The notes beneath the pieces were generated by a model that searched no databases, had not been told where the DNA came from, and worked only from the letters and a program-made list of their open reading frames with translations. Source: a virus. Taken from it: 44,863 nucleotides of DNA. Every line of letters begins with the position of its first letter. Within the stretch, counting starts at the first letter, position 1. Shown here piece by piece: positions 3,699-36,774 of this stretch. The position numbers and the translations under genes are program-made. The DNA is taken from the UHGV virus genome UHGV-0368231, one strand, 5' to 3'.

Positions 3699-4640
3699 CT
3701 ACATATAATATTCTTTGTGTTTGAACACGACTTTTTGCATCAACTTGGTACTTCTAAACGTGTTCCAACCAGGTATTAAAGTAGGGTTGCGTCGGCTCAC
3801 ATTATAAGCATCAATGTTTAAACCGTTTCTGAAAGTGTGAATACCATCAAATTTGATAGTATCGCCTGCTTTTAACTCTAAGCCTTTGATATTAATAACA
3901 TCACCACTTTCAACCATATAAAAAGTAGTACCGTTTTTATCATTTTTAGATACATTTTCTGCTAAAGTCACTTCAACTGTGCTATCTTGATTAATTTGAT
4001 TGATTTCAACCGTACCTGCATAATAAACGTTGCATATTTTTGTATCGTGGAAAGTATATTTACGTTTATTATCATTAACATTAAACGGTAAGCTATCCGA
4101 TACCGCCCATTTTTCAACACTTCTACTTTCACTTTCTAAATCAGTACTATATGCGATGCTTTCAAAATAAGGTAGCTCAATGGTTTCAAATTCAAGTTCA
4201 AACTCACCAGCTGTTTGTGTGGTATCAATTGAAATCGCACTAACTAGACCGACAAAAATCTGCCTACCGTCTACATAATCAAGTTCAAACTCTTGAGGTT
4301 TTGTGTTGAATATATCTTCATATTTAATAGATGTATCAGGTGTAGATAATTCACGCAAATAATAATGACCACGTAATAATGCTTGTAAATTTGACTTAAG
4401 ATGTGTCACTTGAGCCATTTTGTCTACTTGATATCGCAATCTAAGACTAACTGTTTTCTTTTCTTCATAGACAGAGTTAAAAAATCTACCTTGCGCGCCA
4501 TTAACTGTACTGTATTCACGATCATATCCTGAACCTTTAACGTCATAGGATACTACTTCTAAAACTGAGCCAGTAAAAGTGTTATTACTGACTTTATACT
4601 TTTTATTATCTTTAATTATTTCTATGTCGTGAGCAATCAA
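3699..4640 (-). CDS. Distal tail protein (Dit, siphovirus tail component)
   Basis: It lies between the tape measure and Tal. The start is probably TTG at 4640, after RBS AAAGGAG and just downstream of the TMP stop, rather than the overlapping track start at 4721. Confidence 0.6.
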   Translation of the reverse strand: MIAHDIEIIKDNKKYKVSNNTFTGSVLEVVSYDVKGSGYDREYSTVNGAQGRFFNSVYEEKKTVSLRLRYQVDKMAQVTHLKSNLQALLRGHYYLRELSTPDTSIKYEDIFNTKPQEFELDYVDGRQIFVGLVSAISIDTTQTAGEFELEFETIELPYFESIAYSTDLESESRSVEKWAVSDSLPFNVNDNKRKYTFHDTKICNVYYAGTVEINQINQDSTVEVTLAENVSKNDKNGTTFYMVESGDVINIKGLELKAGDTIKFDGIHTFRNGLNIDAYNVSRRNPTLIPGWNTFRSTKLMQKVVFKHKEYYM

Positions 4641-31257: not shown

Positions 31258-31944
31258 ATGTCTGAAAAAAAGAAGTGGTATAAATCCACATGGTTTACTA
31301 TTTTAACTCTAATCTTTATTTTCCCCTTAGGATTGTTTCTAATGTGGAAATACATGGATTGGAAGCGTTGGGTTAAAATTTTAATTACTGTTTTAATTAT
31401 TATAATAGCTATCACCAATCTTACAAGCTCACCCGAATCAAATAACGAATCTTCAAAGAAAGAAGTAACAACTGAAGAGAAAAGTTCTGAATCAAAAGAA
31501 GAATCTAATGACGAATTAGATACCGAAGAAGAGACTACTTCTGAAGAAAGCACATTTGAAGAATCTAACGATGACTTAGATTCTACTGATGAATCTACAG
31601 AAGAAGAATCTACAGAAGAAGAAACTTCTAGTAAACCAACTAGAGAACGGAAAGCTGCATTAAACAAAGCTGAGACGTATTCTGAAATGATGCATATGTC
31701 TAAAAGTGGTATTTATGAGCAATTAACTTCAGATTATGGTGAAAAATTCCCTGCTGATGCAGCTCAATACGCTGTGGATAATCTAAAAGTTGATTATAAA
31801 AAGAACGCACTAGAAAAGGCTAAAGATTATGCAGAGCAACAAGATATGTCTACTGATGCTATTTATGATCAATTAACTTCGGATTATGGTGAGAAGTTTA
31901 CCGCAGAAGAAGCTCAATATGCAATTGATAACTTAGATAATTAA
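31258..31944 (+). CDS. Ltp-family superinfection-exclusion-like protein (TM-anchored, acidic Ser/Glu linker, two Ltp repeats)
   Basis: Two repeats: IYEQLTSDYGEKFPADAAQYAVDNL and IYDQLTSDYGEKFTAEEAQYAIDNL. There are N-terminal TM helices but no lipobox Cys. Confidence 0.65.
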   Translation: MSEKKKWYKSTWFTILTLIFIFPLGLFLMWKYMDWKRWVKILITVLIIIIAITNLTSSPESNNESSKKEVTTEEKSSESKEESNDELDTEEETTSEESTFEESNDDLDSTDESTEEESTEEETSSKPTRERKAALNKAETYSEMMHMSKSGIYEQLTSDYGEKFPADAAQYAVDNLKVDYKKNALEKAKDYAEQQDMSTDAIYDQLTSDYGEKFTAEEAQYAIDNLDN

Positions 31945-31999: not shown

Positions 32000-33025
32000 A
32001 TGCAAACACGATGTTATGACGGTAAAAAATGGCAATATGAGTTTAAATATGATGGTAAGAGGTATCGAAAGAAAGGTTTTAGAACGAAACGTGAGGCAAA
32101 CTCTGCAGGGTTAGATAAGTTAAATGAATTAAAGCAAGGTATTGAATACGAACCTAATTTAACGTTGTACGACTATTTTAAAACTTGGTGTGAAACCTTT
32201 AAAAAATCGACGGTAACACCTAAAACATATAAGTCCTATATCTCTGCAATTGAACATATCAACAATCATCCTATCGGCAAAAAGAAACTGAAAGACTTAT
32301 CCAGGTACCACTATCAAGATTTTATTAATGAGTTTTCAAAACATCATTCGAAAGAATCTATTAGAAAGCTAAACGGCTATATTAGAACATCTTTAGATGA
32401 TGCAGTTTATGAAGGACTTATAGTAAAGAACCCTACTTTTAAAGTTAGTTATAGAGCTAGTAACCCAAACAAAAGTGAAGGTAGTAAGTATATAAATCTA
32501 AAAGATTATGAAGTGTTAAAACAGCATTTGATGACTAAAGACAACGCATCATCACTCGTACTATTCATCATGATTTGTACTGGTTGTCGCATAAGTGGTG
32601 CTTTGAATCTAAAACGTGAATATATCAATCAAATTAAAAGTGAAATATATATTGATGAGCATAAAACAGATTCGTCTCCTCGTTATGTGTCTATTAGTCA
32701 AAAGGATATGAACCATATCATTAAGTCTATTGATCAATTACCTAGAACAATCGACGGTACTATTTTTGGCGAATTAACAAACAATGCGGTTAATAAACGT
32801 TTAAAAGTATATTGCAACAATCTAGGTATCAAAGAGATTACTTCGCATGCACTACGTCACACTCACTGTTCATATTTATTAGCCAAAGGCATTTCTATAT
32901 ATTACATTTCGAAAAGGCTAGGACACAAAAATATATCTGTAACCACAGAAGTTTATTCACATTTACTTGAAGAAACTTATAAAGAAGAAGATGAAAAAGC
33001 AACACAGATTATAAGTGCAATGTGA
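32000..33025 (+). CDS. int: Tyrosine integrase
   Basis: 341 aa. C-terminal HALRHTHCSYLL...LGH...Y catalytic signature. The N-terminal arm-binding-like domain is basic. RBS AGGAGGGA. Confidence 0.9.
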   Translation: MQTRCYDGKKWQYEFKYDGKRYRKKGFRTKREANSAGLDKLNELKQGIEYEPNLTLYDYFKTWCETFKKSTVTPKTYKSYISAIEHINNHPIGKKKLKDLSRYHYQDFINEFSKHHSKESIRKLNGYIRTSLDDAVYEGLIVKNPTFKVSYRASNPNKSEGSKYINLKDYEVLKQHLMTKDNASSLVLFIMICTGCRISGALNLKREYINQIKSEIYIDEHKTDSSPRYVSISQKDMNHIIKSIDQLPRTIDGTIFGELTNNAVNKRLKVYCNNLGIKEITSHALRHTHCSYLLAKGISIYYISKRLGHKNISVTTEVYSHLLEETYKEEDEKATQIISAM

Positions 33026-33234
33026 TTTTTAGGGACCCATTAGGGACCCAAAACCCCATGAAACCCGTTGTTATAAGGTTTATAGTATCCCTCCCAGGAC
33101 GCTATTAGCCGAAAATTAAACACTTTTCCAAATCAAGAATCCCATAACGACGGGGTTCTTTTTATTTTGTCTATTAATAACACACCATATAAAACTAATT
33201 TTTAGGGACTTTTTAGGGACCCGAGTCCCTAAAT

Positions 33235-33263
33235 AAAAAACCACGCTCATAAGAACGTGGTTT
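33235..33263 (-). terminator. Hairpin AAACCACG-ctcataagaa-CGTGGTTT with a T-run on the minus strand
   Basis: The minus strand reads stem + TTTTTTATTT. The plus-strand side has only a weak U-tract. Confidence 0.5.
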
Positions 33264-33317
33264 AACCTCATAAATAAATCTTAAAAATCTCTACTATCAC
33301 AAATTGGGCATGTATCT

Positions 33318-33359
33318 ATTATAACATAAAAAAGCCACCCAGTGACATGTGTGGGTGGT
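33318..33359 (-). promoter_or_regulatory. Terminator-promoter module: hairpin CCACCCA-(10)-TGGGTGG (33335-33358), T-run, then extended -10 TGTTATAAT (33318-33326) on the minus strand
   Basis: Read directly. It is a near-copy of the module at 34681-34721. Confidence 0.55.
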
Positions 33360-33508
33360 GTAGGCTTACATAAGCGCTTGCTTACAACTACTTTTTAAAG
33401 ACACTGGATTGAAAGGGTATCAACAATCGGGATTAGTTATTGCTCACGGTGTCTCTCGTGTTATGCGTATATTATAGTATAAAAATAGACGTTCATTAAT
33501 AAGTATGT

Positions 33509-34081
33509 TTATTTAGAAGAATTTTCATTAAATATTTTTATAGGACATAATTTATTTGTCATTACATCTTGCTGGTTGTGTTTAGTGCTAGGATGTATTA
33601 AATGATGAGAATCTATAAACAATGGGTGGACGTTATTGTTCGCTTGATCGTATAAACAAATAATTCTAATTCCTCCGGCAATACCATATTGCCATAGTTT
33701 CTTTTCTTCATCACTGAAGATGTCTAATTTTTTATCATTAATTTTATCAACAATTGTTTGTACTAGTTGTAATTTATCTTCATTTACTAAATGACAATGC
33801 GTTTTTCTTGAATGCCATATCCCCTGTTTATTAAATATATCATAACCATATTTTTCAATATCAGGTAACAATACAGTCATTACTTTGGTCAGAGTTTTCG
33901 CCATAGATTGATAGTCGTTATACATATTAGTAAATTTATAACTATCAATTTTACATGATCTAAGCCAATTTTCATTTTCTAATATAATCTTGAATTCTTC
34001 TTTTATTCCTTTTCTATTGGCAACATTTGGATGAACCGGTGGAATATTCTTATTTACTTTTTTCTTTTTTTGTTTCGACAT
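33509..34081 (-). CDS. Unknown-family 190-aa protein, candidate toxin / effector partner of the Panacea antitoxin
   Basis: Its ATG lies 1 nt after the PanA-like stop (...GAATAAaATG...). Lys-rich N-terminus MSKQKKKKVNK. His-rich C-terminal motif VHPLFIDSHHLIHP. I could not assign a family. Confidence 0.6.
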   Translation of the reverse strand: MSKQKKKKVNKNIPPVHPNVANRKGIKEEFKIILENENWLRSCKIDSYKFTNMYNDYQSMAKTLTKVMTVLLPDIEKYGYDIFNKQGIWHSRKTHCHLVNEDKLQLVQTIVDKINDKKLDIFSDEEKKLWQYGIAGGIRIICLYDQANNNVHPLFIDSHHLIHPSTKHNQQDVMTNKLCPIKIFNENSSK

Positions 34082-34082
34082 T

Positions 34083-34538
34083 TTATTCCGCTTGCTTTAC
34101 ATAGTACTCAAACATATCTTTTTCAGAAATTACATTTTGACAAAGTTCTAAACTTGAAAAACCTGCTCTAGCTTTTTGCCACGGTTCTTCTTGGTGAGTA
34201 ATATTTTCTAGCTCATTTCCATTATAGCCACCATAAACTTCAAAAACTTGTTCTAATATATTCTCAATATCTTCATCAAATTCAATGTTTTCATTTATTT
34301 GAGGTATGTTAGAGTATCCGAAATGTTTATATTCATGATATACAACTGGTATCACTGGACCATGTACCCACGCTTCAAAATTCTCTCTAAATAATCTATT
34401 TTTTATATTACTAGCATTTTCATTTTCTAACGTAATTGTCCAAGATTGAGCATAATATAACATTTTTTGTAATTTTTTAGGAGACATCTCTTTTTTTGAC
34501 AGGAACCATTTTATGACTTTTTGTAATTCATCACTCAT
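34083..34538 (-). CDS. Panacea-domain (DUF4065; PanA / SocA / GepA-like) antitoxin-type protein
   Basis: KLQKMLYYAQSWTITL...FEAWVHGPVIPVVY matches the conserved DUF4065 core (KLQKLLY.AQ ... F.AW..GPV.P.VY). 151 aa. RBS GGAGGAG. Confidence 0.6.
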   Translation of the reverse strand: MSDELQKVIKWFLSKKEMSPKKLQKMLYYAQSWTITLENENASNIKNRLFRENFEAWVHGPVIPVVYHEYKHFGYSNIPQINENIEFDEDIENILEQVFEVYGGYNGNELENITHQEEPWQKARAGFSSLELCQNVISEKDMFEYYVKQAE

Positions 34539-34562
34539 AAATAATCTCCTCCTTCAAACACA

Positions 34563-34574
34563 TTATATAACATA
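34563..34574 (-). promoter_or_regulatory. Proximal putative promoter for the accessory operon (minus-strand ATGTTATATAAT, -10 TATAAT ~25 nt upstream of the RBS)
   Basis: Third degenerate copy of the ATGTTATAAT motif, preceded by GGTGGC as in the 33334-33359 copy. Confidence 0.4.
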
Positions 34575-34680
34575 AGCCACCATTTTTATACGAAAAAATC
34601 ATCATAACAAAAAAAGAGGCAACCGTCAGCAACAGTTACCTCAAGTACACTCCGCAGATGTGTACCGCAATTTCTATTTG

Positions 34681-34721
34681 ATTATAACATAAAAAAAGAG
34701 GGCAGTCGCTAGGACTACCCT
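34681..34721 (-). promoter_or_regulatory. Terminator-promoter module after the endolysin: hairpin AGGGCAGTC-gctag-GACTACCCT (34699-34721), T-run, then extended -10 TGTTATAAT (34681-34689)
   Basis: Read directly on the minus strand as AGGGTAGTCctagcGACTGCCCTCTTTTTTTATGTTATAAT. Confidence 0.55.
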
Positions 34722-34765
34722 AATTTGGAGATCTTTGTATAATGTCGTACTATTACTATAACATA

Positions 34766-36475
34766 TTAATACACTTTTGTTATTCTTAAACGTTCATGCC
34801 AAATATAACCATTGTTATTTTTAGAATAAACACGACACCAACCGTCTTTGATTTCAAACACATAGAATTGGTTATAGCCTGCTCTATATACGTCGTTTGT
34901 CGTATACCATTTCTTGCCTTTAAACTTCACTAAAGTGGCTCCGTAATGGTCAACTCTTGCTCTAAATTTAGCTTTAGATGATTTCTTCATCGTTTTAGGT
35001 GGAATGTTGCCTACTTTTAAGCCTTTTGTTTCATTCAATTTATTTTTCTGGTTAACTATTTGTTTATTCGGTTTATTCGCTAATTTACTTCCGCCTGAAG
35101 TTTTATAAATATCTTTAACGATAAGACGTTCATACCATACAAAACCGTTATTACTAGCACTGTATACTCTAGCCCAACCATCACGAATTTCATATACATA
35201 GAATACGTCGCCCGGTTTATATTCTTCATTTGTTGTAACCATCACATTATTGTGGTTAGGTCTACAAATAGTGACACCTGCGTTATCAGCAATTGCTTTG
35301 AAATATGGTTGGTTACTCCAAGTTAGTTTTTTAGGAGGACGTTTGTTAACTGTAATTGAACTGTTAGATTTACGTTTTGTTGCTTTAACTTCTTTAATAT
35401 CCGTTAAATCTACGCTATCATCAGCAAAGTCTGGAACAATGAAGTGGGTTAATCCTGTATAATCATCTTCACGCAATTTAGCTGGTGTATTGGCATTTCC
35501 ATCATAGTTTTGCTCTAAGATTGTGAATGTATTTGTACCACCTGAATTATCCCAAACTAAGCCTGTATGCCCCCATTCTCTATAAATACCTTCAGTATAT
35601 ACTGCAATAGCGCAAATAGGAGGAACATAATTCCTTGTATTTTTAACTACTTTCCAACCTTTAGGCATAGCATTTAAAGTATGCAATTCTTTGGCATTAC
35701 CATAGAAACGAACGCCACCTGTCACATGATAGATGAAGTCTACACTTAAATCTGCGCATTGATAAGCATACATATGATCAAAGTCTACAAACTGACCTTT
35801 CAAGCTGTGCATGTATTCAATTGCTTGTTTATACTTAACCACACTTTGTGGCGAAGGTGTCGGCTTTTTGTTTGTTTTCGTTGATAGTTTCTTACTTGGT
35901 GAGGACTTAACACCATTGATGTATTTAGAGATTTGTTTATCTAAATGTTTAACATTACGTGAATAACCACAAGCCTCCAATAAGTTACCAGGATCAATTT
36001 TATCAGCTTGAATATCTTGGTGTCCTGGCACTTCTGTTTTGTAATCAATTCCCCAATAGTTACATAAATACGCCAATACACGCGCCATATTATCTAATGA
36101 CTTACGTGAACGTTCAATATTACCTGGGAAGTAACTACCTTCTACACCAAATGCTACATCGTTAGCGTCAGCATTGTACCATTGATTATCAGTAGGTGTG
36201 TTATATAATACATGCCACGCTTTTTCTGTTACTGGAATACATACGATACACTCTTTGTCGTCAACAAAAATATGAGCGCTTGCGACGATTGACCAATCAA
36301 TCATATACGTATTTTTATAATAATTCACGTTTGTTTGTGCTGTTGTGTGAGGGTTTCCAGTGTCATGTGCTACTGCAAACAAAGGTTTCTTACTTGTTAA
36401 GGGTTGCCCGCTTCTACGTGTCCCAATCGGTAAAAAATCATACTTAACTGGGACGCCATTCCATTTTTCTGCCAT
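34766..36475 (-). CDS. Endolysin: N-terminal amidase_2 (PGRP-like N-acetylmuramoyl-L-alanine amidase), central CHAP domain, two C-terminal SH3b-like repeats
   Basis: AHDTGNP...GHQDI..DKIDPG (amidase_2 zinc ligands). YQCADL...GHTGLV...EQNY (CHAP Cys/His/Glu). Duplicated ...FYV(Y/F)EI(R/K)DGW.RVYS..NNG..W.ERL at the C-terminus. Confidence 0.8.
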   Translation of the reverse strand: MAEKWNGVPVKYDFLPIGTRRSGQPLTSKKPLFAVAHDTGNPHTTAQTNVNYYKNTYMIDWSIVASAHIFVDDKECIVCIPVTEKAWHVLYNTPTDNQWYNADANDVAFGVEGSYFPGNIERSRKSLDNMARVLAYLCNYWGIDYKTEVPGHQDIQADKIDPGNLLEACGYSRNVKHLDKQISKYINGVKSSPSKKLSTKTNKKPTPSPQSVVKYKQAIEYMHSLKGQFVDFDHMYAYQCADLSVDFIYHVTGGVRFYGNAKELHTLNAMPKGWKVVKNTRNYVPPICAIAVYTEGIYREWGHTGLVWDNSGGTNTFTILEQNYDGNANTPAKLREDDYTGLTHFIVPDFADDSVDLTDIKEVKATKRKSNSSITVNKRPPKKLTWSNQPYFKAIADNAGVTICRPNHNNVMVTTNEEYKPGDVFYVYEIRDGWARVYSASNNGFVWYERLIVKDIYKTSGGSKLANKPNKQIVNQKNKLNETKGLKVGNIPPKTMKKSSKAKFRARVDHYGATLVKFKGKKWYTTNDVYRAGYNQFYVFEIKDGWCRVYSKNNNGYIWHERLRITKVY

Positions 36476-36774
36476 TATCCACGACCTCCGCCAATTTTAT
36501 TATTTTTATCTTTAGTTGAACCTGTACGTGGTCGAACTGTTTCCCAAATACCAGTAGCCATTAGTCCGCTTATTAAACCAGCAAGCAAACGACCACCAAT
36601 CGATAATTCGGTAACAATTTCAGGGATAAACGCTGTAATGCCACCTAAAACGATACCAATACCGATAGCAATTAAAGGCACAATATTTTTTGATACGCCA
36701 GCTTGCTTAACTAATTGTGTTAATGCAATTGTTATAACTGAAATTACTGTTGCAAATGCAATAATACTTTCCAT
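36475..36774 (-). CDS. Holin
   Basis: 99 aa, 2-3 TM helices, charged C-terminus, immediately upstream of the endolysin and overlap-coupled to it. Confidence 0.8.
   Translation of the reverse strand: MESIIAFATVISVITIALTQLVKQAGVSKNIVPLIAIGIGIVLGGITAFIPEIVTELSIGGRLLAGLISGLMATGIWETVRPRTGSTKDKNNKIGGGRG

Follow-up and report, generated by a model that had tools for sequence, protein, structure and literature searches.

Results

A Panacea gene and a partner gene lie between the lysin and attP of a Staphylococcus phage

We investigated a 44,863-nucleotide (nt) stretch of viral DNA, UHGV virus genome UHGV-0368231 (the whole stretch is referred to as the window throughout), with a focus on two adjacent minus-strand genes, panA and panT, which encode a Panacea-domain protein and its putative toxin partner. 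Along the minus strand, the holin gene (36475-36774) and the endolysin gene (34766-36475) are followed by an open reading frame (ORF) of 151 amino acids (aa; panA, 34083-34538) and a 190-aa ORF (panT, 33509-34081), after which the DNA is non-coding. Beyond this non-coding DNA on the 3' side of panT lies the integrase gene (32000-33025, plus strand). The nearest relatives of the window are the Staphylococcus haemolyticus phages IME1365_01, IME1318_01 and IME-SA4 with 88-92% identity over parts of the genome; by sequence comparison, the window belongs with these S. haemolyticus phages and represents a temperate Staphylococcus phage. The attP core (33087-33109, minus strand) was located by homology to the annotated attP-R of IME1365_01, of which the window contains an exact 21-nt match at 33087-33107 (0 expected by chance), and it marks the end of an accessory slot. 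Lysin and attP thereby bracket the gene pair (panAT), in agreement with a previous interpretation made from the letters of the DNA alone (the sequence-only reading), which had described it as a cassette between these two landmarks.

The 151-aa protein PanA carries the Panacea core KLQKMLYYAQSW...FEAWVHGPVIPVVY and matches the Pfam family SocA_Panacea (PF13274) over the full length of the profile (positions 1-113 of 113; E=2.9e-18, 67.3 bits with a cut-off of 25.7), which bears out the earlier assignment of the ORF at 34083-34538 to DUF4065/Panacea. It also matches phrog_1281 (E=1e-41). PanA is a stand-alone Panacea protein with an acidic isoelectric point (pI) of 4.9 and is a putative antitoxin or sensor. 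It is not a SocA equivalog: the score against NCBIfam NF047745 was 48.5 bits with a cut-off of 190, and a SocAB-type (type VI) neutralisation was on these values rejected as a class for panAT.

The TAA stop codon of panA (34085-34083) is separated by the single base 34082 from the ATG of panT at 34081, so that the coordinates and the 1-nt spacing given by the sequence-only reading are correct. PanT is a basic protein (pI 9.3, family median 9.0), and over the N-terminal 25 residues the median net charge is +6. No significant match to PanT was found in Pfam, NCBIfam or PADLOC, and the sole library match was phrog_24206 (E=2e-15), a family of unknown function.

panA and panT form a conserved two-gene module

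Homologues of PanT were collected with searches of increasing depth. A word-index search returned nine Staphylococcus homologues with 54-98% identity, and an exhaustive profile search over 1.84 billion cluster representatives (50% identity) returned 171 proteins at E<=1e-3, among them 86 at E<=1e-10. The PanT family thus comprises at least 171 clusters at 50% identity; apart from fragments its members have about 165-230 aa, mostly about 170-200 aa. A second word-index search with a large PanT alignment added only nine distant proteins. In the phage collection, protein matches to PanT were confined to the Streptococcus satellites Javan218 and Javan219 (32% identity), and in Javan219 the partner gene again follows the Panacea gene, here with a 4-nt overlap.

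To describe the genomic neighbourhood, distant PanT homologues were sampled across the range of E-values. A SocA_Panacea gene was found directly upstream of the homologues from Priestia (P0013), S. kloosii (P0005) and a near-identical Staphylococcus contig (P0001), as well as upstream of four metagenomic homologues (P0029, P0052, P0087 and P0125). In addition, the motif LF[IV]DxHHLx[YH]P was turned into a degenerate DNA pattern and scanned in 185,579 species genomes. The pattern yielded 19 loci, ten of which are true members of the PanT family, the other nine being chance matches. The members found in this way belong to Virgibacillus, Fructobacillus, Isobaculum, Tetragenococcus, five Bacilli metagenome-assembled genomes and one Tenericutes metagenome-assembled genome, and a PanA homologue was encoded immediately upstream of PanT in all nine loci that could be evaluated (E=1e-31 to 1e-60).

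Taken over both approaches, all 18 loci that could be evaluated have a PanA homologue (E<=1e-30) directly upstream of PanT. Over 17 loci, the pairwise identities among PanA proteins correlate with those among PanT proteins (Pearson 0.84, Spearman 0.41), and together with the complete pairing this indicates that panA and panT are inherited together. Kurata et al. define a PanAT pair as two genes at most 100 nt apart that are kept in at least two species and are not part of a longer operon (their SI Fig. S1), and panAT shows this layout with a gap of 1 nt, conservation across species and variable flanking genes. We conclude that panA and panT do not adjoin by chance and that they form a conserved module of two genes across Bacillota, their phages and satellites. 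The proposal that a Panacea antitoxin and a partner form a module here is therefore well founded, both in the PF13274 match of PanA and in the 18 conserved pairs.

PanT is predicted to contain a RelE/ParE-like core

A first AlphaFold model of PanT, computed with ten Staphylococcus sequences, was unusable (predicted local distance difference test, pLDDT, 41) and was replaced by a model based on an alignment of 141 family members, which reached a pLDDT of 88 and a predicted template modelling score (pTM) of 0.80. In this model, a disordered Lys-rich tail (residues 1-30) is followed by short strands and turns that include W39 and F50-T51-N52. The core consists of a helix (57-83), a loop and short strand with H95-C96-H97, a second helix (101-115) and three strands (127-133, 139-145 and 150-157), and the C-terminal segment bears H160, N169, D172 and C179-P180. 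A fold search with the predicted model puts the core (about residues 57-160) in the RelE/ParE superfamily, with the order alpha-alpha-beta-beta-beta and superposable on solved members. Foldseek ranked the same families at the top, yet gave no match with E<0.2, and in BFVD there was one significant viral relative, which is unnamed. A Pfam scan of the 141 family members revealed no shared family.

Conservation was determined over the same 141 sequences. R139 and D157 are invariant, H160 is conserved in 99% and H97 in 97% of the sequences, followed by N169 (95%), N52 (94%), H95 (92%), F50 (91%), Q131 (88%) and D172 (85%). According to the strand register of the predicted model, Q131 at the end of beta2, R139 at the start of beta3 and D157/H160 at the end of beta4 cluster at one edge of the sheet. 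In RelE, YoeB and YafQ the catalytic residues sit in the corresponding sheet-edge region. The modelled positions of R139, D157, H160, H95 and H97 are compatible with an active site, and we regard these five as candidate catalytic residues. Judged from the model, PanT is a putative toxin of the RelE/ParE fold, extended at both termini, and most probably acts as an endoribonuclease.

The PanT family probably falls into a published cluster of predicted toxins

A survey of DUF4065 gene neighbourhoods by Kurata et al. (2022; PNAS, PMC8832971) distinguished 88 toxin clusters. Their Dataset S1 pairs the PanA of S. kloosii ATCC 43959 (WP_103295454.1) with the partner WP_103295453.1, a 'hypothetical protein' of cluster T1 in the order A|T with gap 2, and T1 pairs of S. 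schleiferi and S. gallinarum are also included (PMC8832971). P0005, the sole S. kloosii protein returned for the PanT family, is 72% (alignment) or 75% (BLASTP) identical to the window PanT, and in the S. kloosii assembly GCA_900458805.1 a Panacea gene of 151 aa ends 2 nt before its start. On the basis of species, layout and gap, and not of sequence, we infer that P0005 is WP_103295453.1 and hence that the PanT family of the window belongs to cluster T1, a membership that rests on this S. kloosii entry. The T1 label occurs at least 217 times in Dataset S1, and by row count no other set of predicted Panacea-associated toxins seems to be larger (PMC8832971).

Three T1 members were assayed by Kurata et al.; all three are labelled predicted 'mRNase' (PMC8832971), and so far as checkable none of them comes from the PanT family of the window. 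The part of Dataset S1 considered here contains neither an HHpred annotation behind the 'mRNase' label nor an entry from a Staphylococcus phage (PMC8832971), and the part of the NetFlax supplement considered has no entry under the accessions of the S. kloosii pair. One published T1 toxin, gp16 of Salmonella phage Emek, gave no match to the PanT family profile (hhalign probability 0.5%), and the Emek PanA (phage Emek 14764-15637 locus) is related to the window PanA (E=7e-24). By these comparisons, T1 seems to lump more than one partner family.

The sequence-only reading could not place the 190-aa ORF in any family and proposed a new toxin domain. The first statement stands for Pfam, NCBIfam and PADLOC, but it does not hold beyond them, as the ORF is one of a family with 171 or more clusters that probably lies within a published cluster. 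The second is overstated: the family is already part of the PanAT catalogue, and its predicted fold is the known fold of RelE/ParE toxins. The PanT family is a computationally catalogued part of putative toxin-antitoxin (TA) systems.

panAT is recurrent cargo at the lysis-module end of prophages

At several loci, panAT adjoins genes for lysis or integration. The order is holin, CHAP/amidase lysin and PanAT in S. kloosii, and XhlA, holin, amidase and PanAT in Priestia. The Virgibacillus pair has an M15 peptidase gene upstream and a host NO-synthase gene beyond, the Fructobacillus pair has an Amidase_2 gene upstream, and an integrase gene adjoins PanAT in Tetragenococcus and in a metagenomic contig (L006). 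Three further loci (L022, L031 and L032) lie in ordinary chromosomal surroundings without obvious phage genes. In Bacillota prophages and satellites, panAT thus recurs as cargo at the lysis-module/att end.

At the DNA level, the cassette was found in none of 50,697 phage records, and the closest relatives carry other sequences in the same slot. In IME1365_01 the lysin is as long as in the window (569 aa), and the phage is about 91% identical to the window at the DNA level across the late region. Instead of panAT, its slot (3980-4640) contains a 71-aa ORF that overlaps the gene of a 151-aa DUF2335 predicted membrane protein, and homology to the window resumes at a hairpin at 33263-33238 and continues through attP. 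In S. aureus phage 37, which is without panAT, the lysin terminator and a TATAAT lead straight into an element of about 130 nt that is shared with the window, followed by attP and the integrase gene. The GC content is 27-30% in the cassette compared to 33-37% in the lysin gene. The variable insert thus extends over about 33264-34765 and is a mosaic of four parts: the lysin terminator, an 81-nt piece, panA-panT and the phage-37-like element. Phage 37 without the pair and IME1365_01 with other genes in its place support the earlier suggestion that the pair is a self-contained accessory insert. In the S. epidermidis phage PH15, the slot is occupied by ph29, which encodes a zinc-ribbon protein, and ph30.

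An exact 16-nt direct repeat on the minus strand, TTTTTTATGTTATAAT (plus-strand ATTATAACATAAAAAA), is present at 34681-34696 and at 33318-33333 and comprises a T-run and an extended -10 motif. The two copies lie 1363 nt apart and bracket panAT together with the flanking small elements, and phage 37 has the same T-run/-10 junction motif twice. Such terminator-promoter junctions resemble module boundaries for cargo exchange, and the 16-nt repeat may be a candidate recombination sequence.

Candidate transcription signals and small elements of the insert

A hairpin with a 9-base-pair stem containing 5 GC pairs and a T-run (CTTTTTTTAT) was identified as the endolysin terminator (34699-34721, minus strand), and terminator-like sites are enriched in the region (7 found, 0.8 expected). 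The sequence-only reading had named two promoter motifs upstream of panA. The first, TGTTATAAT at 34689-34681, is at the expected site and lies inside the left copy of the 16-nt repeat, and the second, the -10 motif ATGTTATATAAT, was one base off: read on the minus strand it occupies 34573-34562, proximal to panA. A strong Shine-Dalgarno sequence, GAAGGAGGAG, precedes panA at 34555-34546 (minus strand). The number of promoter-like matches (10) did not exceed that expected from shuffled sequence (11.1), and the candidate promoters of panAT are therefore plausible only.

Between the two motifs, a segment of about 80 nt (34600-34680, minus strand) resembles a structured leader or small RNA (sRNA). 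It contains two hairpins, the second of which is an intrinsic terminator (34642-34616), with an extended -10 motif TGTTATGAT (34609-34601) overlapping its T-run. The predicted RNA fold of the segment has an energy of -28 kcal/mol (z=-4.67; none of 200 shuffled sequences was as stable), and the 81 nt at 34611-34691 are 97.5% identical to unannotated intergenic DNA of the S. epidermidis phages PH15 and E72. The segment may represent a small RNA or attenuate the transcription of panAT.

Downstream of panT, the separate element of about 130 nt (33334-33481, minus strand) has its own -10 motif TATACTATAAT (33481-33471) and a terminator hairpin (33358-33335) with a T-run. The lysin-integrase gap of phage 37, the only record of the phage collection in which the element occurs, shares 89% identity with positions 33317-33489 of the window. 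The element was rejected as an sRNA candidate based on a fold z-score of -1.2, its occurrence in phage 37 only and an Rfam scan of 32900-34900, which gave only sub-threshold SprX/SprD matches at 33212-33379 (24 bits compared to 80-100). No hairpin is found directly after the panT stop codon; the hairpin at 33358-33335 lies about 150 nt downstream of it, and panAT transcripts probably read through to this terminator, which would be shared rather than the cassette's own. The hairpin that the sequence-only reading took for the cassette's own terminator is thus present, but since it belongs to an element that phage 37 carries without panAT, it is not specific to the cassette.

Further features were observed around attP. 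A third mini-unit (33238-33326, minus strand) comprises an extended -10 motif TGTTATAAT (33326-33318), about 60 nt and a strong terminator hairpin (33263-33238), and overlaps the start of a 51-aa ORF (33116-33271) that is probably spurious. The attP core is flanked by an imperfect 32-nt direct repeat (33025-33056 and 33198-33229; 81% identical) with TTTTTAGGGAC(C/T) motifs, and these repeats may be arm-binding sites of the integrase. Just upstream of the integrase gene lies a 228-aa ORF (31258-31944, plus strand). Its product has a hydrophobic N-terminal segment, a low-complexity stretch that is acidic and rich in Ser, Glu and Thr, and a repeat of about 35 aa in two copies (…YEQLTSDYGEKF…AQYA(V/I)DNL…).

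Discussion

A proposed prophage-borne module with the architecture of a type II toxin-antitoxin system

Our favoured interpretation, to which we assign a probability of roughly 60%, is that the region harbours a prophage-borne PanA-PanT module with type II TA architecture, carried as exchangeable lysin-attP cargo and with a putative mRNase as toxin. In the lysogen, sigma-A-type promoters located beyond the lysin terminator would drive panAT, and translation of panT would be coupled to that of panA; the 1-nt gap and the weak internal ribosome-binding site suggest such a coupling and a sub-stoichiometric amount of PanT. PanA would bind PanT directly via the Panacea domain and hold it inactive, as published for stand-alone Panacea antitoxins, which neutralise toxins directly (Ernits et al., 2023; PMC10440598). 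Once PanA is lost or displaced, whether by shut-off of transcription, by proteolysis or by a trigger from an infecting phage, free PanT would be an endoribonuclease that cleaves mRNA during translation, as RelE, YoeB, YafQ and HigB do, and its putative active site along the beta-sheet edge would comprise R139, D157, H160 and H95/H97. Growth would then be arrested, with the consequence that other phages are excluded (abortive infection) or that the prophage is stabilised.

Several observations weigh against this interpretation. At the sequence level, no match to the RelE, ParE, YoeB, HigB or Gp49 families of Pfam was found at E<=1 in PanT or in the 141 family members, and all matches of the PanT family profile to PDB sequences were at noise level (E>=0.17). 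Of the 190 residues of PanT, about 85 fall outside the RelE-like core, and the His/His/Asp/His pattern of PanT might bind a metal, on which RelE-type RNases do not depend. A search of the PADLOC-DB v2 defence models with PanA and PanT gave 0 families at E<=1, so that a defence role is argued by analogy only. Experimentally, the T1 toxin of Clostridium cadaveris was toxic in E. coli, but its PanA 'failed to neutralise', and in the same host the T1 members of E. coli MOD1 and of phage Emek showed no toxicity (PMC8832971). These mixed results are a real caution for the TA interpretation; T1 appears heterogeneous, however, and the E. coli results may therefore not transfer to the PanT family of the window.

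The alternative that fares best, although we hold it as tentative, accepts panAT as a genuine TA system but assigns it to the stabilisation of prophages and satellites, by post-segregational killing or as an addiction-type selfish element, rather than to defence. The presence of the pair on the satellites Javan218/219 and at the chromosomal loci L022, L031 and L032 is what would be expected of a selfish mobile module, and the absence of a match to any known defence-system model of PADLOC points in the same direction. On the other hand, temperate phages often carry superinfection-exclusion or defence cargo at sites of the lysin-attP type, and the recurrence of panAT in this moron slot fits such cargo; the literature, too, increasingly ties TA modules to defence (PMC10440598). 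By analogy, the position and the mobility of panAT fit a prophage-encoded exclusion or addiction function, and stabilisation and defence are not mutually exclusive.

It is unlikely, in our estimate, that the conserved module is not a growth-arresting TA system at all and that PanT is a non-toxic effector, such as a nuclease or modifier directed against foreign nucleic acid or a factor for the lysogeny or lysis of the phage itself, with PanA in the role of regulator or sensor. The E. coli assays, in which two of three T1 members were harmless and the toxic one was not neutralised (PMC8832971), can be read in this way, and Ernits et al. propose a sensory role for the Panacea domain, which they see as primarily a sensor (PMC10440598). 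The consistent position of the module at the lysis-module end of prophages and a possible metal site formed by the His/His/Asp/His set, not seen in RelE toxins, would also agree with such an effector. The non-toxic T1 members may however represent another subfamily or need their native host, and panAT bears the hallmarks of a type II TA system: the antitoxin gene comes first, the gap is 0-4 nt or the genes overlap, the partners are acidic and basic, both proteins are small, the predicted fold is of a toxin type and the distribution is patchy and mobile.

Equally doubtful is a more far-reaching extension of the favoured TA interpretation. PanT could be a distinct, double-sized enzymatic elaboration of RelE/ParE, paired exclusively with a co-evolving stand-alone Panacea protein, whose H-x-H...R...D-x-x-H set might coordinate a metal or act on tRNA, rRNA or phage nucleic acid instead of mRNA on the ribosome, and the Panacea protein could sense a protein of an invading phage, in which case panAT would be an unrecognised and widespread abortive-infection system at the lysin-att junctions of Bacillota. 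We consider it still less probable that the pair is a PanAT system in which PanT, instead of cutting mRNA, uses the RelE/ParE scaffold without nuclease activity, either to poison gyrase as ParE does or as some other binder.

Comparison with known systems

The RelE/ParE toxins RelE, YoeB, YafQ, HigB, ParE and BrnT have 85-115 aa compared to the 190 aa of PanT, which differs from them by a conserved N-terminal extension of about 55 aa (with W39 and F50-T51-N52) and a C-terminal extension of about 30 aa (with N169, D172 and C179-P180). The putative antitoxin differs as well, being a Panacea protein and not RelB, YefM, DinJ, HigA or ParD. If PanAT should turn out to be an ordinary RelE-like TA system, the finding would amount to a routine annotation of a phage moron.

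SocAB is a type VI TA system of Caulobacter, and SocA is the founding Panacea antitoxin. Neutralisation as a ClpXP adaptor is not known for PanA proteins other than SocA. PanA and SocA have the Panacea domain in common, but the partners differ: that of the window has a predicted RelE-like fold, and SocB constitutes the separate cluster T10 (PMC8832971).

Like other moron cargo in the lysin-attP slot of staphylococcal phages, the insert is variable among close relatives and bounded by terminator/promoter junctions; unlike such cargo, that of the window is a PanAT pair.

The closest counterparts are the T1 PanAT pairs of Kurata et al., in which a stand-alone Panacea/DUF4065 gene is likewise followed by its partner (A|T; gap 2 in the S. 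kloosii pair) and whose predicted 'mRNase' label agrees with the RelE/ParE-like predicted fold of the window PanT (PMC8832971). T1 is broader than the PanT family of the window, as Emek gp16 lies outside its profile, and the window copy resides on a Staphylococcus phage and is absent from the phage collection at the DNA level. None of the three assayed T1 pairs passed the toxicity-neutralisation assays (PMC8832971), and the existing account of fold and target of T1 consists of the 'predicted mRNase' label. To this cluster we add a clearly delimited subfamily with 171 or more clusters, a high-confidence model of a RelE/ParE-like core and candidate catalytic residues, and the copy on a staphylococcal phage provides a tractable native Gram-positive system in which to address T1 as a TA or abortive-infection system and sensing by the Panacea domain.

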